A stretch of DNA of 64,000 nucleotides from positions 14,379-78,378 of the forward strand of contig WPAF01000007.1 of NCBI GenBank assembly GCA_009772965.1, given 5' to 3'. The notes below the pieces were generated by a model that was not told the DNA's origin, did not search any database, and worked only from the letters and a program-made list of their open reading frames with translations. This DNA is from Candidatus Saganbacteria bacterium. Lineage in GTDB: Bacteria; Margulisbacteria; WOR-1; XYC2-FULL-46-14; WPAF01. A program made the position numbers and the translations under genes. The stretch's first letter is position 1; each line of letters opens with the position of its first letter. Positions 22,587 through 55,092 of the stretch are shown here, piece by piece.

Positions 22587-22857
22587 ATTGGATTTTAGAA
22601 AAGTATGCGGATGAGGGGCAAATATTTTTTAATCCGCATTGGGGGCAAAGCGGCTTTTTAGCCTTGCAGATATTTCGGCCGTGTTCAATTAATAAATACG
22701 CGGCATCTCCCCACATCGGCTTTGGAATTATTTTCATTAAATCCTGCTCGATTTTCTCCGGATTTTTATTTTTTGATAATCCCAGCCTTTGCGACAACCG
22801 GATTACATGCGTATCAACCGTTATGCCTTCTATTTTATTAAAAGCGGTATAAAGCAC
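22573..22857 (-). pseudogene. Displaced 3' fragment of endonuclease III (nth), duplicate of nth residues ~122-204
   Basis: The 94-aa ORF is nearly identical to the C-terminal part of the intact nth at 23870..24517 (LYNAFNKIEGITVDTHVIRLSQRLGLSKNKNPEKIEQDLMKIIPKPMWGDAAYLLIEHGRNICKAKKPLCPQCGLKNICP). Confidence 0.7.
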
Positions 22858-22866
22858 AACTGATGC
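22616..22866. repeat. Direct repeat copy A, ~251 bp and ~97 percent identical to 23918..24169
   Basis: Aligned by eye. Runs gggcaaatattttttaatccgcattggggg ... aaagcacaactgatgc, with about 5-6 mismatches or indels. Confidence 0.85.
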
Positions 22867-23869: not shown

Positions 23870-24517
23870 TTATGCAACAGTCCCATTATAAAACTTATTC
23901 ATGAAAGAATCGTAAAACGGGCAAATATTTTTTAATCCGCATTGGGGGCAAAGCGGTTTTTTAGCCTTGCAGATATTTCGGCCGTGTTCAATTAATAAAT
24001 ACGCGGCATCTCCCCACATCGGCTTTGGGATTATTTTCATTAAATCCTGCTCGATTTTCTCAGGATTTTTATTTTTAGACAATCCCAGCCTTTGCGACAA
24101 CCGGATTACATGCGTATCAACCGTTATGCCTTCTATTTTATTAAAAGCGTTATAAAGCACAACTGATGCGGTTTTTCGTGCAACGCCGGGAAATTTGATT
24201 AATTCTTCCATAGAATCGGGAACTTTGCCATGATATTTTTCAACTATTATTTTTGCGGAATTAATGATGCTTTTTGCCTTGTTCCTGAAAAATCCGGTTG
24301 AGCGGATTTCCTGCTCAAAATCTTTAGCGCTTGCATCGGCATAATCTTTTGCGGTTTTGTATTTTTTAAATAAGGCTTCGGTGACAATGTTTACCCTTTT
24401 ATCCGTGCATTGGGCGGAAAGGATAGTGGCAACCAGCAAGTCGATTGGGGTTTTATAGTTTAGCGCGATTTTCGCGTTTGGATAAAACTTTTTTAAAAGT
24501 TTGAATATTTGGTTCAT
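23870..24517 (-). CDS. nth: Endonuclease III (DNA glycosylase/AP lyase)
   Basis: HhH-GPD motif LIKFPGVARKTASVVL, catalytic Lys region, and the C-terminal [4Fe-4S] loop CPQCGLKNICP. Confidence 0.9.
   Translation of the reverse strand: MNQIFKLLKKFYPNAKIALNYKTPIDLLVATILSAQCTDKRVNIVTEALFKKYKTAKDYADASAKDFEQEIRSTGFFRNKAKSIINSAKIIVEKYHGKVPDSMEELIKFPGVARKTASVVLYNAFNKIEGITVDTHVIRLSQRLGLSKNKNPEKIEQDLMKIIPKPMWGDAAYLLIEHGRNICKAKKPLCPQCGLKNICPFYDSFMNKFYNGTVA
23918..24169. repeat. Direct repeat copy B, inside the intact nth gene
   Basis: See copy A. Confidence 0.85.
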
Positions 24518-29000: not shown

Positions 29001-29428
29001 TGTGCTTCACCTGTGCTTTCTTTTGTTGTTTCATTGCTTTTTATAATGTAGTCGATCGTTTTTGGCTTTCCTATAATAATTGTGACTGCACGGCCTTCTT
29101 TTGCCACTCTTCCCGCTTCCGGCCTTTGAAATGAAACCACATCCTCATTTTCATAATTTTTTTCGACAAAACAAATAAGGCCGATAGATTCAAGCTTTTC
29201 AAACGCTTCCATTTCTGAAAGACCAATTACATACGGCACCACTGTTTCAGGGAGAGGAGAAAAATGGGTTAATACAATATAACTTATAATTACAGGGGCG
29301 GAGATAATAGCCAAAATCATTGCCATAAACCTGAATTTAAACCTAAACTTCAGACGGGAAACAAGAAAGGCGATAAGGAGAGCGATAAAAATAATAAAAA
29401 TTAAATAGTATGTCAATAATTCGCGCAT
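28997..29428 (-). CDS. Membrane-anchored stand-alone PASTA-domain protein
   Basis: N-terminal TM helices, then VPYVIGLSEMEAFEKLESIGL...FQRPEAGRVAKEGRAVTIIIG, a PASTA fold signature. Its start overlaps the kinase stop (TAATG). Confidence 0.6.
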   Translation of the reverse strand: MRELLTYYLIFIIFIALLIAFLVSRLKFRFKFRFMAMILAIISAPVIISYIVLTHFSPLPETVVPYVIGLSEMEAFEKLESIGLICFVEKNYENEDVVSFQRPEAGRVAKEGRAVTIIIGKPKTIDYIIKSNETTKESTGEAQ

Positions 29429-30387
29429 TATTGCCCCGCCAGTATCTGGGAATAAATTATTGAGTAGATAACCCCTGCTAAAACCGCGAGCAGAACCACA
29501 ATAGCTAAAAAGAAACTGCGCTTTTGTTCTTTCCTCTCAACTATAATTACTTTTTCTTCCGGCCGCGGCGCGTTTTCAAGCTCAACCATAGGCACGGCTT
29601 TTTTATTTTCAAAAAGTGTTCGGTTGTTGATGCTTTCTAAAAGTTCATCCATGCTTTTAAATCGCATAAGGCAGTCTTTTTCCAGGCATTTTGAAAGAAG
29701 ATCAGAAATGTGCTTTGGCGCCGGGGGGAGTTTTGCTGTTTGGGATATTTTTTCAAGCGGCAGGCCTTTAAACGGGACACTGCCGGTGAGCATTTCATAT
29801 AATAATATTCCCAGGGAATAAGCGTCTGAAGAAGGACGAGCCGGCATGCCCAAAATTTCTTCAGGGGAGGCGTAATCGCTTTCTGCCAAAATATATTGAG
29901 CTTTTTGGGGCATGGATTCCCTTATATCGCCCTCAATGATAAAGTCTGAAACGACGACTTTGTTATCTGGCTTGATAAAAATATTAGTTGGCTTTAAAGC
30001 TCCGTGGATTATGCCGATTTTATGGGCATCTGATAAAATCCCGGCGATTTTATAAACCAGATCCAAGGCAAATTGCGGATCAGGATTATGGTTTTTTAAA
30101 AAATCCCTGAGATTTTGCCCAACGACAAATTCCCTGACATAGTAAAATCCTTGCCAGCCGTAATCGCCGTCTAAGAGGAGGGCAATCCCTTCGCTTTCAA
30201 TTCCCTGAAGGGCTTTGACTTTTTCTTTCATTGATTTTATCAATACCGAGTTTAGGGTGCCGCGCTTATAGATTTTTATTATTACAGGTTGTTCTCCAGA
30301 AAGGGTGGTTCCCCGGTAGGTGAGGGAAAAAAGGTTTTCGCCGATTTTTTCGCCGATTTTAAACTTGCTTTTTAAAAGCCGTTCCAT
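29428..30387 (-). CDS. Hanks-type Ser/Thr kinase-like protein with degenerate catalytic motifs (predicted pseudokinase); C-terminal TM anchor
   Basis: Kinase fold with the VAIK-like lysine present. The catalytic loop reads HGALKPTN where HRDLKPxN is expected. DFG is replaced by DFI. C-terminal TM FFLAIVVLLAVLAGVIYSIIY. Confidence 0.75.
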   Translation of the reverse strand: MERLLKSKFKIGEKIGENLFSLTYRGTTLSGEQPVIIKIYKRGTLNSVLIKSMKEKVKALQGIESEGIALLLDGDYGWQGFYYVREFVVGQNLRDFLKNHNPDPQFALDLVYKIAGILSDAHKIGIIHGALKPTNIFIKPDNKVVVSDFIIEGDIRESMPQKAQYILAESDYASPEEILGMPARPSSDAYSLGILLYEMLTGSVPFKGLPLEKISQTAKLPPAPKHISDLLSKCLEKDCLMRFKSMDELLESINNRTLFENKKAVPMVELENAPRPEEKVIIVERKEQKRSFFLAIVVLLAVLAGVIYSIIYSQILAGQ

Positions 30388-33972: not shown

Positions 33973-35334
33973 TTAGATTTTCGATAATATTAAATATTTT
34001 AACCTAAATATTAAATAAATGGGGACAGACAAAAGCTTATAGTTAATATTTTCACCGTTAGGCAGTTTTACTGAAAGATTGTCAGATTGTAAAACGCCAT
34101 TATAAAGCCGAATGCCTAGATTTGTTTTACTCCTATAAAGAAATTGGTGCAAGGATTTTAAAGATCCATGTCCTCCGGATTTTACTTCAATAGGAATAAG
34201 CTGGTTATTAATTTGAATTAAAAAGTCCAATTCAGAGGTGGCGCCTTTTTCTTCGCGAATCCAAAAATATAATGTATTTCTATTGTCAAAATTTAAAGCT
34301 AATAATTCTTGGCTTATGAAGGATTCAAACAATGCCCCGCCGTAGACAGGGCTCATAAAATTTTGTTTAACTTGATCCTTAGTAAGTTTAAGGGCATGAG
34401 TGCAAAGCCCGACGTCTAGAAAAGCTAATTTTGGAGCAGCTTTTATTTTTTTTATCAACGGCGGCCTAAAACAAACAGTAGGAAAAATACGTTCGACTAA
34501 CATTGCTTCATGTAGAATATCAAAAGCTTTTGATATATTCTTTGCCGCGGAATATGACCCCGCAAGATTTGAATACTTGATTCGTTTTCCTATTTCTGTT
34601 GGAGCCTTATCCCAAACGAGTTTCATGAATTCAACTTCAGAATGATTTGAATATTTTGCAAAATCTTCTTTAATAGAAAGAATAAGCTCTTCCTGCAGCT
34701 GTCTTATTGAGGTAAAGTTTTTATTAGAAAGATATTCACTTACCATTTCAGGCATGCCGCCCACAATCATATAATCGGCCAATAAATCAAAGGCTTTTTC
34801 CTGTAAGGGGAGAGGCATGGGCTTTTCAAGACTACATTCATTTAATGATTCAAGAAGGATTTTTTCATTTAGGGCAGCTAAAAATTCTTCAAAGGTTACA
34901 GGATACAAATAGAGAAATTCAACTCGGCCAACCGGAAATGACCACCCCTCGGTTTTCATGCGGACTTCCAGAAGGGACCCAGCGCTAATGATATGTAAAT
35001 CCGGCATCTCTTCATAAAAGTAGCGTAGAAGTTTTATGGCAGTAACGGAATTTTGAATTTCATCTAAAAAGAGGAGAGTTTCCTTTGGCATAATTTTACT
35101 ATTGGATAAACCTTCGATACTTTGTACTATATCTTTAATATCTTTAACTTCATTAAAAATTTGGCGGATTGCATCTTTTTCCAGGTTTAGTTCAATAAAG
35201 CTATTAAATTGCTTGGCAAACTTTCTTACTATTGTAGTTTTACCGGTTTGGCGGGCGCCACGCAGTACCAGGGGCTTGCGGTTTTTCTTGTTTTTCCATT
35301 CCAAAAGGTTTTTTTCAACACTTCTGTTAAACAT
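33973..35334 (-). CDS. AAA+ ATPase of the AAA_14/DUF4143 family
   Basis: Walker A LRGARQTGKTT, Walker B LLFLDEIQ, C-terminal DUF4143-like region; 453 aa. Confidence 0.75.
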   Translation of the reverse strand: MFNRSVEKNLLEWKNKKNRKPLVLRGARQTGKTTIVRKFAKQFNSFIELNLEKDAIRQIFNEVKDIKDIVQSIEGLSNSKIMPKETLLFLDEIQNSVTAIKLLRYFYEEMPDLHIISAGSLLEVRMKTEGWSFPVGRVEFLYLYPVTFEEFLAALNEKILLESLNECSLEKPMPLPLQEKAFDLLADYMIVGGMPEMVSEYLSNKNFTSIRQLQEELILSIKEDFAKYSNHSEVEFMKLVWDKAPTEIGKRIKYSNLAGSYSAAKNISKAFDILHEAMLVERIFPTVCFRPPLIKKIKAAPKLAFLDVGLCTHALKLTKDQVKQNFMSPVYGGALFESFISQELLALNFDNRNTLYFWIREEKGATSELDFLIQINNQLIPIEVKSGGHGSLKSLHQFLYRSKTNLGIRLYNGVLQSDNLSVKLPNGENINYKLLSVPIYLIFRLKYLILSKI

Positions 35335-45524: not shown

Positions 45525-45552
45525 CGTAATTCGTAACGCGTTACGAATTACG
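45525..45552. repeat. Perfect 28-bp palindrome CGTAATTCGTAACG|CGTTACGAATTACG, with more CGTAA/TTACG half-sites on both sides. Member of a dispersed intergenic element family
   Basis: Read directly, 16 nt after the argB stop. Related copies at ~30411-30459, ~50504-50518 and ~55044-55092. Confidence 0.7.
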
Positions 45553-45588
45553 TCCTCCGCATTACGTTCCCGAGCGAAGTTTACTTTT

Positions 45589-45631
45589 CCATGCAAGTTT
45601 TCTCCCCTCTGAAGCGATATATATAATGAAA
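45589..45631 (+). promoter_or_regulatory. Conserved upstream motif pair CCATGCAAGTTTTC ... CGATATATATAATGAAA, 44 nt before the giant ORF start. Also found before the paralog at 51884
   Basis: Identical 14-mer and 17-mer upstream of both paralogous genes. The 17-mer contains TATAAT, and its spacing to the ATG is the same (44-45 nt) in both. Confidence 0.45.
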
Positions 45632-45675
45632 TGCCATATGCCTGTGGATGGTGTATTTTTTTTGAGGGAGGAATA

Positions 45676-48600
45676 ATGACGACTCCGGCAAACAATTTGG
45701 AACAAATAAAATCAGCGTGGAATAATTTTTTCCGCGTGAATATTGCCAAGCAAAATACTGAAATACTAAATAAAATTGTTGAAGTATTAAAAAATAATGA
45801 CAGCAAGCAATGGATTATCTATGTTAAAAAAGACGTACAGGGAAAAATCCAATTATGCAAACAAGGCGATACTGGCGCGATAAAAATTGACCTGCATGAC
45901 GGATTAAGTGTGGCTGAAGCGAAAACTCTTGGCATCGATATTACCCGGGGAATTAATAAAATTGCCGCGCACGGATGGAGATTAGATAAAGAAAAAGGAA
46001 TCCAGCAAGGTCCCGGCGCGCAGGTTATTGATGGCAACGAGGTTGTAAAATTTGACCAGGCGATAAGGGAATATGCCAGCGCGAAGGGCTGGACATTTGA
46101 AGAAGCGCAAAAGGCATACTACTCAAGAGAAATCCAATTCGGCCGGCAGGACCTTGTACTGCAGGCAAAAAACAGAGAAGCCGCTTATAAAACACTGGTT
46201 GAAAAAACAAAAAACTGCAAGAAATATGATGAATTTATCAAAGTAATTAAATCCGAGTTTGGGATTAAAAGCGAGCAAAACCCAATCCTGTTAAATTTAT
46301 ATAATTTGCATGAGCTTAAGAAAATTGGCTTTAAAGACGCAGAACAAAGGGCAAAAGCTGCAGCATTAGTCATAAAATTTGCTTCTGCATCACAAACAAG
46401 CAAGCAATTTCAGGAAGAAGTCTTAGGATTGCCGGCGCCAATAAAGACAAGATATGAGGGCCAAATGGCTTTGCCCTCAATTATTGCCTGGGCAAAAGCT
46501 GCGCAAGAATATGAGCAAGCAAAAGAAGAAGATTCTGCCGCAACAATTCCAGGAGATTCGATTCCGCCAATTGAGCCTCAAGCAGATAATCCTCCCCTAA
46601 GTATGGTTGGAAAAGGAGCCCCTCGCGTTCCTGAAGGCCAAGGTCTTAAAATGCAGCCGCTTAATCGAAGGGAATATGTTCGCGATCTTTCACAACAGAG
46701 TACCAACCTTAGAATTGACAGACAAAATGATGCGTCGCCGGCAGCTCCTAATTCTGCGCCTAAGCCTGACCCGTCAAAGCCAAGCTCAACCCCTGCGGCT
46801 GGCTCAAGACCTGCTTCTCCAGCAGCAGCTCCGCAATTAATTACAACAAATTCAAATGCTGTGCAGAAAATTGTTGAATGTCAAGCCCCAATAAGACAAA
46901 TAGAGGTATTACGCAAAACTTCTGAACAATACCACGCAAGACTTAAAAGGTTAAAAAAGCAAATTCAAAGGGCCGGAAAAAACACAAAAAAACAGAGAAG
47001 ATTAATTCAGCAATATAATCAGAATGTAGATAGATACAGAGCAATTAATGAACGATGGAGGGAGCTTGCGGCTGTATTAGAAAATTCAACTAAGGCGGTT
47101 TTTACTTACATTCAAGAGATATATTTCAATGCATTTATGGCGGCCAGCCCTACCAGAGAAGCGGCAGCTAAATGGAATGCCTTTGTGCGAATGCTCGAAA
47201 GTGCACAGGTAAATTACAGGGAGATAAATTTATTTATCAGATTATCTAATCCAAGACTTTCAAAAGAAGACAGGAACTTACTTTTTAACTTTTACGCGAA
47301 AAAAGATAATAAGCTTGAAGCGGCAGTAAGGCAAAGGATTATCACGGCGTGGCGCGAAAGTGTTGATTCTTATAATGGTTGGCATGGAAGAAATTATCAT
47401 ATCAGCGCTTCAGTATTTCTTGATATTGTTAGTCAGCAAAGCGGCATTCTTAGGAATGAACGAATATTAGGAAAAATTTTTAAAGGTAAGCTAACGGAAG
47501 TATTAACAGTTGTCGGGCCGCAGGAAATGAGGCGATTGCTTGGTCTTTCAAAAGAAGAATTATTTAGGGAAATAGATATTGCATCAAAGGAATCCTCATC
47601 TTATCCCATTGGCTCATCCTCAAAAATATTGGCCATGAAAAGGTTGGGAGATCTTCATGCAATTGCTTATGCGCGGGGATTTTCTCTTTTTGATTATAAC
47701 TACCAGCATTTTATTAAAGAACTGCCGGGCTTAGAAAATCAGGATTATCGTTTGGTTTCGTTTTTTAATGAAGTTGCGGAATCTCATGAAAAAACTGATG
47801 ACGCAAAATATCGGCAGGAATTTTCAAAGTACCTAACTTCGGTCTTTGAAAGATATTTAAAATTACCGGTAAATCAGTACGATAAAAGAATTCTATTTTT
47901 AAAACTTTTAAGCACATTATACGCAATGGCATTAAAGATTGGCATATCAAAAGAAGAATTTAATAAAATATATGCGTCGGCAAAAGATAAAATAAGACCT
48001 CCAGTTTCCGGTGGACAGAATATTAATACGCTTGCAGAACTAAAAACAAGGATCCCAATTTCGGTTGGCTCTAATGGCTTGCCGCAAGAAGTAGTAGCAA
48101 TTTTAAGGGCTACTGGAGATTATGCCTTGGTTGCGAAAAATCTGAATGAGATAATATTTACTAACAATATCCATTCGGGACCATTAGGCATTAAGCCTCA
48201 AGGGCTTGCGTTATCCGCGTTTGGAATAGTTGTTATTGACGCGGTTAATGAGCGAGGCAAAATCAGGTCTGCTTGGGAAATTGCGGCAATATTAGTCCAC
48301 GAAGCGGCGCATGTTTTATGGTTCAAAAATGTCCAAGGATTGCTTTTGAGCTCAACTCCAGATGAAAGAAACGCGTTTTTAGCAACAAAGAATTTCCTGG
48401 ATAAATATTTGCAAAATAATAAATCTATTGATAGAAATACAAAACAAGAAATACTGAGATATATTGCTTTAAACAAATACGCGGTAATGGGGGCAAATTA
48501 TGCTTTGGGATATGAGCAAAATAATATGCAAGTGAATCTTTATCAACAAATGCCTGTTATGAGGGAGGGATTGCCAAAGCCCGAAGATTTGGACTTGGAG

Positions 48601-50496
48601 AATTACCCTGCAAACCTAGCGATGCACTTTGTTGATAAAAACTTTGATGACATTATTAAATACTTGGAAATTAATCATGCCGGAAAGGCATTTATTCAAT
48701 CTTTATTAAAAGGCGAAATATCTCTAAAAGTGTCATATGCCCAGAGCGGCAAAGAGCCAATCAAGGTAAAAATTCAGGTTGTGGGGAGCGATGGAATAAT
48801 TAGGGACATAAACAATGAAGAGTTGAGTGCCCTGCAAGCGATTTATAAAAAATTGTCTCCTACTCAACAGCCAACCCCGGAATATTTAGCGGCATGGTTT
48901 AACGCTTATTCTAAACAAAACTTTCGGACAAAGAGCAAAACAATATGGGGTAAGGCAATTGTTTTAAAAGCTATTAAGCGGGCGAAGAATTACCGAAATG
49001 TACCTAAAAACATACAAACCAAGCATCGACAATTTATTAGAGGATTATATTCAATTTTTAGTTCAAAAAAATTGTCAAGAGCAATTGATTCGGGGAGGAT
49101 CAATGCAATATTTGATGCGGTTTTTGGTTTGTTATTTGGAAAAGTTAATATGAAGGATTTACAAAAATTCTTAAAACTAAACCCAAACAATTTTGACGTT
49201 TGGGCAATTTTAATGATTTATAATCTGGTTAAAAACGAGAAAAATAAAAGAATACAACTTGCATTGATTAACATGGCGACAGGGAGTATGAATCAAACAT
49301 TACAGAAAGCGGGAGGGAGATTTGAATTAAGTATTGAGTTTACAAAATTTGAAGCGTATCAGTTGTTGACTGCGGTATTGCTTTGTCAAGAAGCTGAAAA
49401 AAATATGCCGCCTGTTCCAGCTCCTACTCCTGCGCCTATGCCTAAGGTGTCAAGTCCAGCTCCCGCAGCACCCGTAATGCCAGCTAGGACAGCGCCACCC
49501 ATACCTGCAGAAAAAACTGTACCGGCGGCTCAAGCAAAAGCACTAGTGGATGAAACATGGGGAAATTTTAACCTGTTTGAGAGAGTTGTTGGCAGATTGA
49601 AAACGCAAGAAGCTTTAGATTTAGCTTCCGGCGGAAGAGTTAAAATGGGAGATCAAAATGCGTTGGATGCTTTAGTTTATGGGCAGAGAAGAGAAATTCA
49701 AGCGCTGGTTAGGCCTATTTTGGCATTAACCGCGCAAGGTAAGCCAGTTTCAGAAAAAATGATCCAAGATCTGCAAGCGAAAAAACAACAATTGAATAAT
49801 AGCAGAGAAAAAATTTCAGATGTTTTATCAAATAGATTTGACCAATACTCAAAATTAATCGTTGGGTTAAAAGAGCTATATGTTAGAGTAAAAACTTCGA
49901 ATCCAGAATTGGCAGTACAGCTTAAACAAGCACATGATGAGTATGTTAAACAAGTGAAAAATCCTGAGAGTATAGAAGCTTACAATGAAAAAAGAAAAGC
50001 TCTTGAAAATATTATTAAGAAAGCAAAGATAATTCCCGTTGCAGCGGCTTCCTCGGCATCGCCAACTGTAAAAAAGCCCGCGGTAGCCAAAGCAGCGCTA
50101 AAGCCTGTAGTATCTGGCTCAACACTGAAGATTACGCCAAGTTCTTCAGATGTATCGCCTGCTTCAACGACAGGGCAAGAAAGTTGGCATGCTCGGTTAG
50201 AAAAGCTTGCTAAAGCAAATGAAGAAGTACGGCTAGATTTAGAAGCATATCGAAACCATGAAAGAAAAATCAATGAATTGGACAAACGCATACAAGAAAT
50301 AGAATTGCGATTAAAAACACTTCATGACTTGAAACAAGATTATAAAAATAAGGGAAGAATAACGCCTAAAAGTATTCTTGGAAGAATAGAAAACAATACA
50401 ATAGAAAGAGGCAAGCTTATGCAATCATATCAAACATGGTTTAAAAGCCGCGAAAGACTAAAAAGAAGCCTTGATAGTGTTTTATCAAATCAATAA
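45676..50496 (+). CDS. Very large hypothetical protein (~1606 aa) with an HExxH motif, Pro/Ala-rich linkers and a C-terminal coiled-coil module shared with the downstream 391-aa paralog
   Basis: Continuous ORF. RBS GAGGGAGG before the ATG at 45676 (the track's 45631 start is upstream alternate-frame extension). HEAAH at nt 48298..48312. Pro-rich tracts around 46540-46850 and 49405-49520. The last ~100 aa align with the C-terminus of 51884..53059. Confidence 0.6.
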   Translation: MTTPANNLEQIKSAWNNFFRVNIAKQNTEILNKIVEVLKNNDSKQWIIYVKKDVQGKIQLCKQGDTGAIKIDLHDGLSVAEAKTLGIDITRGINKIAAHGWRLDKEKGIQQGPGAQVIDGNEVVKFDQAIREYASAKGWTFEEAQKAYYSREIQFGRQDLVLQAKNREAAYKTLVEKTKNCKKYDEFIKVIKSEFGIKSEQNPILLNLYNLHELKKIGFKDAEQRAKAAALVIKFASASQTSKQFQEEVLGLPAPIKTRYEGQMALPSIIAWAKAAQEYEQAKEEDSAATIPGDSIPPIEPQADNPPLSMVGKGAPRVPEGQGLKMQPLNRREYVRDLSQQSTNLRIDRQNDASPAAPNSAPKPDPSKPSSTPAAGSRPASPAAAPQLITTNSNAVQKIVECQAPIRQIEVLRKTSEQYHARLKRLKKQIQRAGKNTKKQRRLIQQYNQNVDRYRAINERWRELAAVLENSTKAVFTYIQEIYFNAFMAASPTREAAAKWNAFVRMLESAQVNYREINLFIRLSNPRLSKEDRNLLFNFYAKKDNKLEAAVRQRIITAWRESVDSYNGWHGRNYHISASVFLDIVSQQSGILRNERILGKIFKGKLTEVLTVVGPQEMRRLLGLSKEELFREIDIASKESSSYPIGSSSKILAMKRLGDLHAIAYARGFSLFDYNYQHFIKELPGLENQDYRLVSFFNEVAESHEKTDDAKYRQEFSKYLTSVFERYLKLPVNQYDKRILFLKLLSTLYAMALKIGISKEEFNKIYASAKDKIRPPVSGGQNINTLAELKTRIPISVGSNGLPQEVVAILRATGDYALVAKNLNEIIFTNNIHSGPLGIKPQGLALSAFGIVVIDAVNERGKIRSAWEIAAILVHEAAHVLWFKNVQGLLLSSTPDERNAFLATKNFLDKYLQNNKSIDRNTKQEILRYIALNKYAVMGANYALGYEQNNMQVNLYQQMPVMREGLPKPEDLDLENYPANLAMHFVDKNFDDIIKYLEINHAGKAFIQSLLKGEISLKVSYAQSGKEPIKVKIQVVGSDGIIRDINNEELSALQAIYKKLSPTQQPTPEYLAAWFNAYSKQNFRTKSKTIWGKAIVLKAIKRAKNYRNVPKNIQTKHRQFIRGLYSIFSSKKLSRAIDSGRINAIFDAVFGLLFGKVNMKDLQKFLKLNPNNFDVWAILMIYNLVKNEKNKRIQLALINMATGSMNQTLQKAGGRFELSIEFTKFEAYQLLTAVLLCQEAEKNMPPVPAPTPAPMPKVSSPAPAAPVMPARTAPPIPAEKTVPAAQAKALVDETWGNFNLFERVVGRLKTQEALDLASGGRVKMGDQNALDALVYGQRREIQALVRPILALTAQGKPVSEKMIQDLQAKKQQLNNSREKISDVLSNRFDQYSKLIVGLKELYVRVKTSNPELAVQLKQAHDEYVKQVKNPESIEAYNEKRKALENIIKKAKIIPVAAASSASPTVKKPAVAKAALKPVVSGSTLKITPSSSDVSPASTTGQESWHARLEKLAKANEEVRLDLEAYRNHERKINELDKRIQEIELRLKTLHDLKQDYKNKGRITPKSILGRIENNTIERGKLMQSYQTWFKSRERLKRSLDSVLSNQ

Positions 50497-50526
50497 CTTA
50501 GCATACGCACAATGCGTAAAAATCGG

Positions 50527-50554
50527 TTGACAGTCCAATAATTACGGCTATAAT
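50527..50554 (+). promoter_or_regulatory. Consensus sigma70-like promoter TTGACA-N16-TATAAT, reading rightward and antisense into the transposase gene
   Basis: Read directly. -35 at 50527..50532, -10 at 50549..50554. Confidence 0.5.
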
Positions 50555-50565
50555 TTACCTAGTGA

Positions 50566-51597
50566 TCAGTGAACAACCCCAGACGTAAGTCTGGGGTTGT
50601 TCACTTGCTTGTTGTTTTCTATCTTGTCCTTCCTGGCTCGCTTTGTGGAATATTCATAAATGACACTTTCTTGCTTAAAGATATTTTTGTCCGTTCTCCC
50701 CAACATTGAGGCAATATTACGAACCTCTTCAAGATTAAGCCCTCCCATGCGAGCTCCTACAACGTAATCAATTTTATGGTTTTCAAGCTGAGTTAAATTT
50801 TCAACACTTAACATTGCTGCGTCAGCTATCACTGTAATTTGATCCATATGATATTTTCTCTTAAGTCCTAGGATCACGGGAAGTATTGTTTTGCCTTCGA
50901 AGGTATTTCCTTTGAAAATATCGTAACAAATGGGGAACCCGATTTCATTGACCACCAAGCCGATTAAGATCTGGGGCTGGTTGATCTTATTGTCTTTTGA
51001 AAAACCATTTAACCTAAAATCATCCTCATTATGGGTTTCAAAATAGAGCGTGGTTACGTCATAAAATACCAATGAAAAATTAAAGCCGAGATTGTTTTTG
51101 GCATATTTTGTTGCCAGGTGTTCAACCTTTTCTTTTAGGCTGGGGAGTTTAGCCAGCTTCCTAAACACTGTCGTTCTTTTGTATTCGATATTAAAGTACT
51201 TATTAAGAAGCATGATCGATTTTGTCTTGGAGGCAGGCTCTAAAACCCTGATGATGGCAAAATGTTTAAGCACATCATTTTTTAGGCAATTAAAACCAAG
51301 CTGCTGATATATGTTTTCTAAATATTCGGAAGCTGTTTCAAGGATGCTTTTTTCTACCTTGATTCCACGCTTAAAGAGAATTTCTTTCGATTGGGGGTTA
51401 AAATCAAATCTTAGTTGTGCTGAGTTGGAATTAACGTATTCATTTGTAATCCCAATCAATTCATCGATCTTATGAATATCTTTGGAAGATCCGATATGTT
51501 TTTCAAGGATGAATCTTTTTCCCTTGTAGAACCCGACTTGAATTGCAGTGCTACCGGAGCTGGTTTTTACTTTTCTGACCCTGTAGTGTGGTTTCAC
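50566..51597 (-). mobile_element. IS4/IS1634-family DDE transposase, C-terminally truncated (likely IS remnant)
   Basis: N-terminus MKPHYRVRKVKTSSGSTAIQV resembles IS1634-type transposases. First D in LVFYDVTTLYFE and second D in ITVIADAAMLS are present. The ORF ends at 343 aa before the expected E of the DDE triad. Confidence 0.6.
50569..50604. repeat. Perfect hairpin with a 16-bp stem and 4-nt loop (GTGAACAACCCCAGAC gtaa GTCTGGGGTTGTTCAC), overlapping the transposase C-terminal codons
   Basis: Read directly. Lies ~10 nt downstream of the predicted start site of the outward promoter. Confidence 0.7.
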
Positions 51598-51752
51598 ACT
51601 ACTTTTTTATATCATTTCCCTCGTTAAATCAAGGCTTTTGTCCCTAATCCCGAAAAACGGGAAACTCAGGAATTTTTACCCTGGCAGCAATTCCTCTCGC
51701 AAATTGAACCAACATAACCCCGCAACCCTGCTACCTTGCTACCATGTCTTGT

Positions 51753-51840
51753 CCATGCAAGTTTTCCCCATCTTATGCCGATGATTAATATGTATATGGG
51801 CTGAAATTTTGTCTTAAAACAGCCGATATATATAATGAAA
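51753..51840 (+). promoter_or_regulatory. Second copy of the CCATGCAAGTTTTC ... CGATATATATAATGAAA upstream motif pair, 44 nt before the paralog start
   Basis: See 45589..45631. Here the two boxes are separated by ~57 nt instead of 13. Confidence 0.45.
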
Positions 51841-51883
51841 GGATCCATAAGAGATCTGTACATTCCCTTAGAGGAGGAAAAAA

Positions 51884-53059
51884 ATGAGCGAACCTAATAA
51901 AATTGAATCCAAGCTAACCCCGGTATATGTGCCCCAAAAGCCCAAAACAACTAAAGAAATTGCAAAAGACTACCAACCAAAGGATGTTGTAGATATTGGG
52001 AACGGCGTAACCATGAAAATCCCAAAAGAAGTCCAGAAAAAAATTGATAAAACAGCAGAAAAAATCCAAGAAAATGAAAGACAAGAAATCGAACGAAGAA
52101 GCGATGTAACGGATATGGTTGCCTATGACACTGCACAAATAAGCTCAAAAGCCGCTAAAGCCCTTAAGGCAACTGAGGATTTTATTAATGACAGGAAGCT
52201 TGTTGCCCGACAAACTACAGAAAGTAAACCTGCCGTAAAAAAAGTAAATTGGAAATGGCAGCCTTTTCTTCTTGGTTCAAAAAAGAAAACCGTCCCGGCC
52301 CCGTCAGCGCCGCCGGTAAAAATTAAAGCCCCGCCAGCTTATTCAACATTTACACTGGAAGCCGGCACAAGGGAACGAGAAACAACTGCTTTTGAAAAAG
52401 AAGAAATTCCAACCACAAAAGATACTAGTGTTGATGGAAAGAAACTTACCACAGCTTTATCAAGGCCAACCAACGCAACAATTCCTGGTGGATTAGACAC
52501 AACTAAAACAGATGATATTACTTCACGAGCCGGGAAATTGGCGGCTAAAAAAGTTCCATCCCCGCCAGCTATTGCTCTACCTCCTCTTGATTCAAAAACT
52601 ATAGCGACGCCAGCTCTAAAACCGGCTCCGAAACCTACACTAGCGCCAAAAGTAATTCAACGCGTTGTTGGAAAAAGAGATCAATATCAGGTGCCTGGAC
52701 AGGTGACAGGATCCCTTCTAGGAGTCGAACAATTGAAAAAAACTTGGGATGAAAAAATATTGGAACTTGCCAGGACAAACGGAGAAGTAAAGCTAGATTT
52801 GGAAGCATATCGTAATAATGTAAAAACAGTCAGCGGATTAAGAACGGCTATAAAAGAAAAAGAAAGAAAATTAGAAAACTTTATTGAACTTCAAAATAGG
52901 CGTGAGCAAGAGGGAAAGCGGCCATCTGATGCAATTGGGAGACGAATCGTCCTCCTGAAAAAAGAAATAGCCCAGCTTGCTCAAAGATATGAGGTTTGGG
53001 TAAGAAGCCAGCGGAAATTAAAAGATGCACTTGATAAAGCTCTGGAGGATGGCAACTAA
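51884..53059 (+). CDS. Hypothetical Lys/Pro/Ala-rich protein (391 aa), paralogous at its C-terminus to the giant protein
   Basis: RBS AGAGGAGG. Its C-terminal TWDEKILELARTNGEVKLDLEAYRNN... aligns with ESWHARLEKLAKANEEVRLDLEAYRNH... of the giant protein along ~100 aa. Confidence 0.5.
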   Translation: MSEPNKIESKLTPVYVPQKPKTTKEIAKDYQPKDVVDIGNGVTMKIPKEVQKKIDKTAEKIQENERQEIERRSDVTDMVAYDTAQISSKAAKALKATEDFINDRKLVARQTTESKPAVKKVNWKWQPFLLGSKKKTVPAPSAPPVKIKAPPAYSTFTLEAGTRERETTAFEKEEIPTTKDTSVDGKKLTTALSRPTNATIPGGLDTTKTDDITSRAGKLAAKKVPSPPAIALPPLDSKTIATPALKPAPKPTLAPKVIQRVVGKRDQYQVPGQVTGSLLGVEQLKKTWDEKILELARTNGEVKLDLEAYRNNVKTVSGLRTAIKEKERKLENFIELQNRREQEGKRPSDAIGRRIVLLKKEIAQLAQRYEVWVRSQRKLKDALDKALEDGN

Positions 53060-53108
53060 TACAAATTGCGCAACCCGCGCCTTGCCTGCCGGCAGGTTGC
53101 AAATGTTC

Positions 53109-53978
53109 CTATTTATATCGACTAGCTTCTTCCTGAAGCAGATTGCATGTATTGTAGGGTTGCTTGGGAGTATGAAATTTCCGGTAATGTTCTTCCGCTT
53201 CCCTTATTGTTTGCCTGCATTTTTCGGTTTTATTGTCTTTACAGTCAATCCCAAGCCGGGGAAAATATTGGAAGCACTGGTTTTCCTTGTTATTTCTATC
53301 AATTGCCAAAGCTTTGTTAGCATATTTAAGCGACATTGCATATTCGCCAATTCTTGTGTAGATTAAACCCATAAGACGGTAAAGATCTGAATGCTTAAAA
53401 TATTTCTCAGCTTTATTTAAAATTTTAATTGTTTCCTCATATTTATTTTTATCTGTCTTGAAAGAGGAAAATATAAATAAGATAAATCCTCTTAACCGAT
53501 TTGCAGTAATTTTATAAGGTTGTGTTTTTTTTATTGCTTGGTAACTAAATACATTGGGGCGCTGGTCTGTGCAAGCAATTTTTTTATAACATGCTACCAT
53601 ATGCCTATTGCCCAAATACCCAAAAACCGGCCAATTTAACTCATGAGCTATAAATATATAAATAAGCGCCAAGGAATAACATTCTAAAGTTTTAATGTTA
53701 AGCTGTTTGGCTAAACCTGGTAAGTCAGTGGTATTATAGTTGAGCCTATGCTTGTTTAATATTTCTCTAACTAGGGCGAGTAATTGCGCGGGAGATGGGG
53801 TGATTTTTGCTTTTTTATAAGCCTTGAGCTTTTCTTTGACATCAGAAAGGATAATCCATAATTGCTCGCAGGCCAACCGCATTTCCGCTTTTGGGACTTC
53901 CGTAGCTTCAAGCGTAAAAAGCCGGCCGGTCACCGGATTATTGCTTTTAAAACCTAACACTGGACTGCAAACTGTCAT
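53109..53978 (-). CDS. Hypothetical protein with C-terminal TPR-like helices
   Basis: 289-aa ORF. The YANKALAIDRNN-type helical repeat is a weak impression only. Confidence 0.3.
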   Translation of the reverse strand: MTVCSPVLGFKSNNPVTGRLFTLEATEVPKAEMRLACEQLWIILSDVKEKLKAYKKAKITPSPAQLLALVREILNKHRLNYNTTDLPGLAKQLNIKTLECYSLALIYIFIAHELNWPVFGYLGNRHMVACYKKIACTDQRPNVFSYQAIKKTQPYKITANRLRGFILFIFSSFKTDKNKYEETIKILNKAEKYFKHSDLYRLMGLIYTRIGEYAMSLKYANKALAIDRNNKENQCFQYFPRLGIDCKDNKTEKCRQTIREAEEHYRKFHTPKQPYNTCNLLQEEASRYK

Positions 53979-54116: not shown

Positions 54117-55052
54117 ATGAATACAACTTTACCATTAGGAAATCTAAAAACACCGCAGCTTGCCTGTCAAGCCCCGCCGCATATTTATCCAGGGCAAAAA
54201 ATTGGCAGTTCTTACATTATCAAAGGAAAAATTGCTGAAGGGGGAATGGGTGTGGTTTATAAAGCTTTTGATGAACAAGGGAATCCGGCAGCCGTAAAAA
54301 TTGCTGTTTTTGGCACGGAATGGTTTAAAAGAGAACAAGAAATCTTAAGAAGACTTGAAGGAAATCCACATGTCCCGCAATTATTAGAAGTGCCAGTTAC
54401 AAACAACAATTATTATGTTATGCAGTTTATTGACGGGATCACATTGCATGATGAGATTGAAATAAACGGGAAAATTTCTTTGCCAAAAGCCATGGATTTA
54501 ATGGCCCAAATTTGTTTCGGTTTAAAACTGGCGGCAGAAAAAAATATATGCCACAGGGACATTAAACCGGAAAATATTATGCTAACAAATGAAGGGAAAT
54601 CTTTTATAATCGACTTTGGCATAGGCAAGATTGGGAACAGCAATGGCGGGAATTACGGTACTGCACTGTTTTCTTCGCCGCAACAGATGAAGGGCGAGCC
54701 TACTGGCCACCGAGATGATATTTATAGCTTGGGAGTCGTTTTTTATTGCATGCTTAGCGGACATTCTCAACCCTTTATCTGCGCAAATAACGATGATGCG
54801 CTTTATATTGAAAAAACTACTACCGATTTACCTCCTATCAAGATTAAATTCCCGACATTGAAAGATCGGGTTAATAGTATGCTTAAAAAAATGCTGGCGG
54901 TATCCAGGGAAGAAAGATGCCAAACTTATGAGGAGATTCTTGAGGCAATTGAAGAAATTAAAGGAGAAATAAAAAAATTAGAGGAACAGGAACAAGCAAT
55001 TAGAAAAGCTTCTATAATAGCAACACTCAGGGAGAAAAAGCGTGACACGTAA
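54117..55052 (+). CDS. Hanks-type Ser/Thr protein kinase (predicted active), cytoplasmic
   Basis: GxGxxG-like loop EGGMGVVYKA, AVKIA lysine, catalytic loop HRDIKPENIML, DFGIGK. No TM segment. Confidence 0.85.
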   Translation: MNTTLPLGNLKTPQLACQAPPHIYPGQKIGSSYIIKGKIAEGGMGVVYKAFDEQGNPAAVKIAVFGTEWFKREQEILRRLEGNPHVPQLLEVPVTNNNYYVMQFIDGITLHDEIEINGKISLPKAMDLMAQICFGLKLAAEKNICHRDIKPENIMLTNEGKSFIIDFGIGKIGNSNGGNYGTALFSSPQQMKGEPTGHRDDIYSLGVVFYCMLSGHSQPFICANNDDALYIEKTTTDLPPIKIKFPTLKDRVNSMLKKMLAVSREERCQTYEEILEAIEEIKGEIKKLEEQEQAIRKASIIATLREKKRDT

Positions 55053-55092
55053 TTCGTAACGCGTTTCGTATTACGCAACCCGTATTACGGAT
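55044..55092. repeat. CGTAATTCGTAACGCGTT-containing imperfect palindromic element, same family as 45525..45552. It overlaps the kinase stop codon
   Basis: Shares the 18-mer cgtaattcgtaacgcgtt with the element after argB. Confidence 0.55.

Follow-up and report, generated by a model that had tools for sequence, protein, structure and literature searches.

The DNA stretch analyzed here, referred to as the window, comprises 64,000 nucleotides (nt) of contig WPAF01000007.1 from a Candidatus Saganbacteria genome and harbors two protein-coding genes in the same orientation, called the big and the small gene in the following, which are separated by a truncated insertion sequence (IS) and share an upstream pair of sequence boxes as well as a C-terminal module of about 105 amino acids (aa). 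A first-pass annotation of this DNA had described both products as paralogous low-complexity proteins with strong GGAGG-type ribosome-binding sites, a common regulatory signal formed by the two boxes, and the architecture of a polymorphic surface or effector family in which a shared C-terminal module is combined with variable N-terminal cargo. According to the present analysis, the boxes together constitute a single promoter of fixed geometry, ATGCAAGTTTT-N12-xCCGATAT(ATA), of which they form the −35-like and the −10-like element, respectively; this promoter is usually followed by a leader element and precedes further large genes of the same genome. The relevant features of the window, including the ribosome-binding sites that could indeed be located in front of both genes, are as follows.

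45589..45602, plus strand: box 1 of the big gene with the −35-like core ATGCAAGTTTT, read as GCAAGTTT; exact match, containing the invariant alignment columns
45613..45631, plus strand: −10-like octamer AGCGATAT of the big gene (45613-45620) and remainder of box 2 (45615-45631), at N17 spacing
45632..45663, plus strand: leader of the big gene with TGCCTGT (45639-45645) and a run of eight T (45656-45663); the hairpin is weakest in this copy
45664-45671, plus strand: GGAGG-type ribosome-binding site of the big gene, GAGGGAGG
45676..50496, plus strand: big gene, 1606 aa, from a scan for open reading frames (ORFs)
45676..46491, plus strand: N-terminal domain (N-domain) of the big protein, its only orthologue-conserved part, with 42-49% identity
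50176..50493, plus strand: C-terminal module (C-module) of the big protein, aa 1501-1606, predicted as antiparallel helical hairpin
50566..51597, minus strand: truncated IS1634-family transposase ORF, 343 aa, with matches to NCBIfam NF033559 and Pfam DDE_Tnp_1
51753..51784, plus strand: promoter P1 of the small gene, composed of box 1 (51753-51766), 12 nt and GCCGATGA (51777-51784), with 13/16 positions of the sigma-28 consensus
51802..51840, plus strand: P2 of the small gene, a promoter-like copy TGAAATTT-N12-GCCGATAT including the exact box 2 (51824-51840)
51871-51877, plus strand: GGAGG-type ribosome-binding site of the small gene, GAGGAGG
51884..53059, plus strand: small gene, 391 aa, from the ORF scan
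52736-53056, plus strand: C-module of the small protein, aa 285-391, detected by BLASTP and profile

Within the window, exact copies of box 1 (CCATGCAAGTTTTC) are found only at 45589 and 51753 and exact copies of box 2 (CGATATATATAATGAAA) only at 45615 and 51824, so that the same two boxes indeed precede both genes; if up to three mismatches are allowed, the number of box 1 matches equals chance. Box 2 ends 44 nt before the ATG of the big gene and 43 nt before that of the small gene, and the gap between the boxes amounts to 12 nt in the former versus 57 nt in the latter. Box 1 of the small gene is actually paired with the first CGAT, at 51779, which lies at the N17 distance also seen in the big gene, and the exact box 2 belongs to a second copy 45 nt downstream of this CGAT with an TGAAATTT of its own 12 nt upstream. 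Read in this way, the promoter of the small gene seems to be duplicated in tandem, with the inserted segment of the upstream region folding as a hairpin; P2 can alternatively be read as TTGTCT-16-TATAAT. An alignment of the regions upstream of five family genes from three genomes revealed that ATGCAAGT.TT and CGA are invariant and that the TGCAAG-N17-CGA spacing is identical throughout, and a weight matrix derived from these five sites gave 56 and 49.5 bits at both window sites, with nothing else in the 64 kilobases (kb) exceeding 12 bits. Most copies in this genome have CCGATATATATA as −10 region, which largely accounts for the exact identity of the 17-nt box 2. That the boxes might simply be copies of a generic intergenic CGTAA-type repeat was not borne out, as they are distinct from the CGTAA-rich palindrome of this locus (see below).

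A conserved ATG (45626-45628 in the big gene) is located 5 nt past the −10 octamer and is predicted to cover positions −2 to +1 according to sigma-28 numbering, in which the −10 octamer of Pseudomonas aeruginosa fliC spans −15 to −8 (PMC12784957). This ATG was also considered as start of a leader peptide and rejected, as the ensuing ORFs comprise 1, 2, 16 and 20 codons and are not conserved by eye. A scan of viral contigs with the promoter pattern yielded 27 matches, mostly groups of identical sequences without an upstream-of-gene layout and none with the leader motif, a number close to chance by rough estimate.

Occurrence of the promoter is not limited to the pair. The source contig was followed for 10 kb on either side, counted from the last complete gene of the window. 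Two additional cassettes of promoter and leader, each with an ATGCAAGT-type core at the same spacing, were thereby found in the right flank (L008), both in front of genes without Pfam domain. These genes and the leader motif sites of all cassettes concerned are listed here.

L008 17387-19711, 5-7 kb beyond the window: 774-aa gene with the same promoter and leader cassette
L008 19885-21179, 5-7 kb beyond the window: gene of at least 3295 aa with the same promoter and leader cassette, running off the contig
Leader motif sites: window 45639-45663; L008 17309 and 19812; L005 7832 and 10395; L006 9939

The cassette hence precedes at least four large genes of this genome without Pfam domain (391, 774, 1606 and at least 3295 aa) and, in addition, three orthologous genes in two other genomes, a Candidatus Omnitrophota metagenome-assembled genome (L005) and a lake-sediment bin (L006). 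Since it also stands before the 774-aa and the at least 3295-aa gene, the boxes mark a set of large orphan genes beyond the pair. The earlier view of the boxes as a common regulatory signal is thus upheld, although the boxes are not private to the pair. As to the lineage, the orthologous loci (L005) suggest that the window be read as chromosomal DNA of an uncultivated Omnitrophota bacterium, the source record being Candidatus Saganbacteria. Four AAA_14/DUF4143 ATPase genes were also noticed (window 33973-35334; L008 13050-17186), three of which form a tandem array immediately ahead of the 774-aa gene.

Downstream of the promoter, TGCCTGT is present 24-39 nt past the CGAT in six of seven cassettes, the chance expectation being about 0.5% per site by our own estimate. 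Local folding places this motif in a hairpin loop, with UUGCCUGU as apical sequence, in five of the six motif-bearing leaders, and a U tract directly follows the hairpin region in five of these six as well. The stems differ by gene (UCAG/CUGA, UACCG/CGGUA, CUAAC/GUUAG and ACCCU/AGGGU), and the distance between promoter and motif varies, as would be expected of an RNA element more than of a DNA site. Both long L008 leaders additionally contain, further downstream, ACAGGCG, the complement of GCCTGT, within a second terminator-like hairpin, an arrangement that corresponds to the layout of an attenuator. Rfam gave no match at E ≤ 1 for the leaders of the window and L008. Antitermination or attenuation in the leader of long operons is known from the nut/boxB hairpins of phage lambda, the ops element of RfaH, and LoaP leaders. 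With these systems, the present element has in common a short conserved sequence placed in a 5' leader hairpin ahead of unusually long genes, and a terminator-like U tract; it differs in that its sequence resembles neither ops nor boxB and that a NusG paralogue was not identified, and its structure is based on six sequences. The leader could act as a conditional terminator or attenuator, or as a protein-binding hairpin, in front of long genes, which is to be taken as a lead only.

Regarding the proteins themselves, homology of the two C-termini, which the first-pass annotation had described as alignable, is well established. BLASTP with composition adjustment yielded E = 5e-15 at 30% identity over 170 aa, with a core of 33% over 105 aa, and the coding DNA contains a 74-nt stretch of 74% identity. 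The module is rich in Lys, Glu, Arg and Leu; a Smith-Waterman alignment of the approximately 105-aa cores nevertheless reached a score of 160, compared with 35 ± 6 for plain shuffles (z = 19.6) and 43 ± 7 for shuffles preserving the heptad register (z = 16.1). As the match lies 16-20 standard deviations above the shuffled sequences, a low-complexity artefact of Lys/Glu-rich coiled coils, which had been named as the possible refutation, is excluded. At the same time, a profile of the two modules, searched with HMMER against 1.84 billion sequences representing about 15 billion proteins, retrieved only both window proteins (E ~1e-49), with no third protein at E ≤ 0.001, and no third copy was detected by tblastn in the window or the fetched flanks. 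By these searches, the C-module is restricted to this genome, with two copies in all.

AlphaFold2 predicts the C-module to form an antiparallel helical hairpin (helices 4-14, 16-58 and 65-105) with a predicted local distance difference test (pLDDT) score of 96.7 and a predicted template modeling score of 0.81. Residues identical between both copies are concentrated at positions 4-27 (W4, L11, A12 and N-x-EV-x-LDLEAYRN at 15-27) and 85-103 (Y..W..S...LK..LD..L), two segments which come face to face where the predicted hairpin is open, the tip being variable. This arrangement suggests that the open end forms a specific interaction surface and is more than a mere spacer, and the earlier proposal of a multimerisation domain is plausible for such a discrete, confidently predicted folded unit. 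Comparison with known structures places the module among generic antiparallel coiled-coil hairpins, as found in prefoldin, the type I secretion membrane-fusion protein LipC, IpaB, ESCRT-III/PspA, and FliJ; resemblance to known secretion signals does not exceed this generic level.

Outside the C-module, both proteins are unrelated, as had been stated before: in an all-against-all BLASTP comparison, four large proteins share the N-domain, whereas the C-module is common to the big and the small protein only. With C-module and promoter in common, the pair is best described as partial paralogues, in line with the paralogy claimed earlier. The big protein starts with the N-domain (aa 1-272). A first linker leads into a private central region (aa ~396-1235), a second one into a helical region, and a third one into the C-module. 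The three linkers are Pro/Ala/Ser-rich and all other regions are of ordinary composition, hence the label of a low-complexity protein does not hold for the big protein as a whole. In the small protein, the N-terminal 280 aa are rich in Pro, Lys, Thr and Ala and have no relatives in the fetched loci or Pfam, to which this search was limited. Searches in Pfam, NCBIfam, PADLOC and by sequence in the PDB gave nothing significant for the big protein, the former three databases nothing for the small one, and no toxin, adhesin, immunity or secretion domain was detected in the pair by this set of databases. The absence of an obvious Sec signal was likewise confirmed, since neither protein possesses a Sec-type N-terminus or a transmembrane segment, and no signal peptide was found in the big, the small or the orthologous family proteins; among the orthologous proteins, TPR repeats in one L005 protein are the sole database match. 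Two candidate functions were dismissed. A metalloprotease reading of HEAAH (aa 875 of the big protein) lacks support from any Pfam family and has a chance expectation of about 5% by our own estimate. Export as a flagellar type III secretion substrate, considered on account of the sigma-28-like promoter described below and the missing signal peptide, found no support in Flagellin_N or Flagellin_C, for which Pfam gave no match at E ≤ 0.1, nor at E ≤ 10 on segments.

A whole-protein search with the big protein retrieved a single relative, P0002 (1247 aa), alignable over the first ~270 aa only (42% identity). Relatives of the N-domain were sought with two peptide patterns per collection (genomes and metagenomes). 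The scan of species-representative genomes located them in L005, where two N-domain genes follow argB in tandem, and in L006, and the metagenome scan added just another copy of the L005 organism, giving an N-domain in four proteins from three genomes. No match was obtained for the N-domain in the PDB by profile or in Pfam, and an AlphaFold2 model from a two-sequence alignment was poor (pLDDT 55). The big-type gene occupies the slot between argB and apgM, as does P0002, which is preceded by the same genes in the same order; its locus reads HisKA_7TM kinase, response regulator, PGM, Memo, AMMECR1, argC, argJ, argB, P0002, apgM. Flanking housekeeping proteins are 64-79% identical between the genomes, compared with 42-49% for the N-domain, and neither the remaining 1300 aa of the big protein nor the small protein, the neighboring TPR and Ser/Thr kinase proteins or the 250-aa protein has a counterpart in the L005 and L006 loci. 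These comparisons mark the locus as a hotspot of rapid change. What the genomes have in common is thus the N-terminal ~270 aa and not the C-module, which reverses the architecture originally proposed.

The ORF between both genes had been annotated as a degraded IS4/IS1634-like transposase, in agreement with its match to the IS1634 model (162 bits, cutoff 100), which covers model positions 8-303 of 483. Being truncated, this IS copy is presumably inactive. It sits in the intergenic spacer upstream of the small-gene promoter and outside the promoter elements, and contig ends at 50405-50523 and 51642-51671 (calculated from locus coordinates) flag a repeated or variable segment around it. An element at 50527-50605, located after the stop codon of the big gene and ahead of the truncated IS, where it is antisense to the transposase ORF end, combines a perfect sigma-70 consensus TTGACA-16-TATAAT (12/12) with a perfect 17-bp hairpin no more than 14 nt downstream and a T-rich tail; this element could represent a tiny transcript, the terminator of the big gene, or an IS remnant.

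Further observations concern the surroundings. The 28-nt CGTAA-rich palindrome occurs in only two copies, at 45525-45552 and 55048-55075, bracketing a variable block which consists of the big gene, the IS, the small gene, a TPR gene and a kinase gene; except for the first ~270 codons of the big gene, this block is mostly without counterpart in the fetched orthologous loci. The palindromes may be terminators or a relic of block assembly. Within the block, the 311-aa Ser/Thr kinase (54117-55052) matches PADLOC models of PD-T4-6, a single-gene kinase anti-phage defence, at 2e-52 over nearly the full model length, a match which may arise with any Hanks-type kinase, and a second such kinase is encoded at 29428-30387. 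A weak match to the magnetosome protein MamA (E = 0.013) was obtained for the TPR protein (53109-53978, minus strand), and a weak one to MamI for a 53-aa ORF (L009 15305-15466); some Omnitrophota are magnetotactic, and both matches are probably noise. Elsewhere in the window, a 251-nt direct repeat of 98% identity (22616-22866 and 23919-24169) flanks a 176-aa ORF with a weak, below-cutoff match to Pfam DUF6036 (nucleotidyltransferase-like), and this unit may be a small duplicated or mobile cassette.

Regarding the factor that would read the cassette, the element is most like a promoter of the alternative-sigma type, closest to sigma-28, although this is a matter of resemblance only. The best fit was obtained with the sigma-28/FliA consensus TAAAGTTT-N11-GCCGATAA (PMC2859248; PMC12784957), which the six instances from the window, L005 and L006 match best in one and the same register, GCAAGTTT-N12-xCCGATxx, at 11-13 of 16 positions. 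Their −10 octamer agrees with GCCGATAA at 7/8 positions in four cases (GCCGATGA, GCCGATAT and, twice, CCCGATAA) and at 5/8 in two, and the two cassettes beyond the window carry TCCGATAT (6/8, own count), with the CGA core being invariant throughout. The −35 element GCAAGTTT agrees with TAAAGTTT at 6/8 positions, AAGTTT being invariant. Characteristics in common with promoters of the group 3 factors FliA, SigD and WhiG include two octamers, AAGTTT upstream and (G/C)CCGATA(A/T) downstream, a short spacer, a conserved purine 8 nt past the −10 octamer, and a discrete set of driven genes. A sigma-54 promoter, considered in view of two sigma-54 activator genes nearby, was discarded, as no GG-N10-GC in the right orientation was seen by eye.

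The competing explanation of the boxes, somewhat unlikely but to be taken seriously, is that TGCAAG-Ttract-N-CGAT represents a promoter of the extracytoplasmic function (ECF, group 4) type, or else that a sigma-70 promoter with a TATAAT-like −10 element is controlled through ATGCAAGT as operator of an activator or repressor. ECF promoters are described with a −35 element tgaAACntttt, a T tract, −10 elements CGTA, CGTC or CGAC, and spacers of 14-17 bp (PMC5758882), and the present element indeed shows TGCAAG followed by TTTT and, past N17, CGAT. Thus, it resembles the promoters of Bacillus subtilis sigma W, X, M and V in its T tract after the −35 element, its CG-containing −10 element and its tight, small-regulon motif (PMC5758882), and the spacing fits as well. 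The hallmarks AAC and CGT, however, are replaced by AAG and CGA at all seven sites, with CGAT in place of CGTA or CGTC, and no adjacent pair of sigma and anti-sigma genes was found here. For sigma-70, a perfect TATAAT is present inside box 2 of both window genes, and the TTGTCT-16-TATAAT reading of P2 would suit it too, but the big gene offers no acceptable −35 element (TTTCTC), and TATAAT is not kept in the orthologues, whereas CCGAT is. An operator would be in accordance with the 11-nt invariant block, a length suited to a transcription-factor site; the 7/8 agreement of four −10 octamers with sigma-28 argues against the entire alternative.

A number of observations also weigh against the sigma-28-like reading and the leader associated with it. 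GC takes the place of the leading TA of the sigma-28 −35 element at every site, and in Escherichia coli a T-to-C exchange at the first −35 position reduced the activity of the aer promoter approximately tenfold (PMC2859248). The spacer comprises 12 nt in all seven instances, compared with 11 nt for sigma-28, the length of which is, however, not strictly conserved (PMC12784957). Three extra invariant bases (ATG) are present upstream, the resulting 11-nt invariant block is long for a −35 element, and matches of 11-13/16 are reached in 1-10% of random 67-nt windows. A sigma-factor gene was not found among the scanned ORFs of the window or the genes of the fetched flanks, to which the search was limited, the targets are large orphan proteins instead of flagellar or chemotaxis genes, and flagella are not mentioned in the Omnitrophota genome surveys checked (including PMC10066038). 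As far as the leader is concerned, the hairpin of the big gene is weak (z = 0.6), the small gene lacks TGCCTGT, and covariation is based on six sequences, with RNAalifold on four leaders giving two compensatory pairs only.

On balance, it is rather probable that the cassette defines a dedicated regulon of large, fast-evolving orphan proteins, of which the big and small proteins are partial paralogues that associate via their hairpins. The second, shorter gene of the pair would have arisen by a local partial duplication in this lineage, keeping the promoter and the 3' module but having an unrelated N-terminal part. The duplication is placed within the lineage because box 1 of the small gene is closer to that of the big gene than to those of the orthologues, and because the C-module is found nowhere else. 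Very fast divergence of the coding sequences would have followed, and the truncated IS1634 copy would have been inserted in the spacer at a later time. An alternative sigma factor, or another dedicated regulator, would then read the cassette and thereby co-express the genes, the leader working as attenuator or binding hairpin. Given co-expression and a shared hairpin, the big and small proteins probably associate, either mutually or with a common partner. A more detailed version, according to which a dedicated sigma-28-like factor reads ATGCAAGTTTT-N12-CCGATAT, a leader hairpin and terminator with UUGCCUGU gates the long orphan genes, and the big and small proteins interact within this undescribed regulon, is rather doubtful as a whole. 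Sigma-28 does operate without flagella in Chlamydia.

Two other explanations of the pair were weighed against the proposed regulon. If the pair belonged to a polymorphic surface or effector family, its C-terminal coiled coil would serve for targeting or anchoring of variable N-terminal cargo, and true C-terminal homology on unrelated N-terminal parts, the missing Sec signals and a locus hypervariable between genomes would all be in agreement with this; moreover, Omnitrophota have been proposed as predators or parasites with large surface proteins (PMC10066038; bioRxiv 10.1101/2023.11.21.568195). Restriction of the module to two proteins among 1.84 billion representatives, however, removes the basis for a family defined by it, and conservation across genomes resides in the N-terminal domain, toxin, adhesin, immunity or secretion domains were not detected, and the hairpin resembles secretion signals only as any helical hairpin does, which altogether renders this explanation quite improbable. 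Hardly tenable is the notion of functionless by-products, with similarity reflecting coiled-coil composition and boxes being duplication leftovers or pieces of IS or CGTAA repeats. Although the composition of the C-module and the IS between the genes might be quoted in its favor, the similarity far exceeds that of composition- and heptad-preserving shuffles, the boxes are situated outside the IS and are distinct from the palindrome, and the motif is kept in genomes without the IS whose neighboring proteins are 64-79% identical.

Returning to the regulon of large orphan proteins, its products are similar to the large and giant orphan proteins of Omnitrophota (Seymour 2023; West-Roberts 2023) in being large, mostly domainless and fast-evolving, and in their proximity to type II secretion or type IV pilus-like genes, here a prepilin peptidase and a T2SSE ATPase at 59.6-61.5 kb of the window. 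In contrast to the described giants, which exceed 10,000-30,000 aa and contain many transmembrane helices and SecA-DEAD domains (bioRxiv 10.1101/2023.11.21.568195), the proteins reported here comprise between 391 and at least 3295 aa, transmembrane segments are absent from the big and the small protein, and no Pfam domain was detected in any cassette gene. No description of the cassette was found in the giant-gene preprint, and neither does the word 'promoter' appear in it; expression of the large Omnitrophota orphan proteins has apparently not been studied to date. A role of the present proteins in contact with host or prey is possible by analogy with what has been published on large Omnitrophota proteins.

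Omnitrophota are uncultivated, ultra-small and perhaps host-dependent, and their large orphan proteins are a recognized puzzle. The gene pair is in itself an ordinary lineage-specific duplication, though a clear case of partial duplication with subsequent very fast divergence, the proteins being less conserved than their regulatory DNA, and the promoter and leader signature is the more interesting product of the analysis. As this signature can be scanned for, a candidate regulon may be listed from genomes and metagenomes, and it would point to the regulator, whether sigma factor or RNA-binding antiterminator, rendering the matter experimentally approachable. If true, the undescribed regulon would provide a regulatory handle on the enigmatic large proteins of a possibly predatory phylum.

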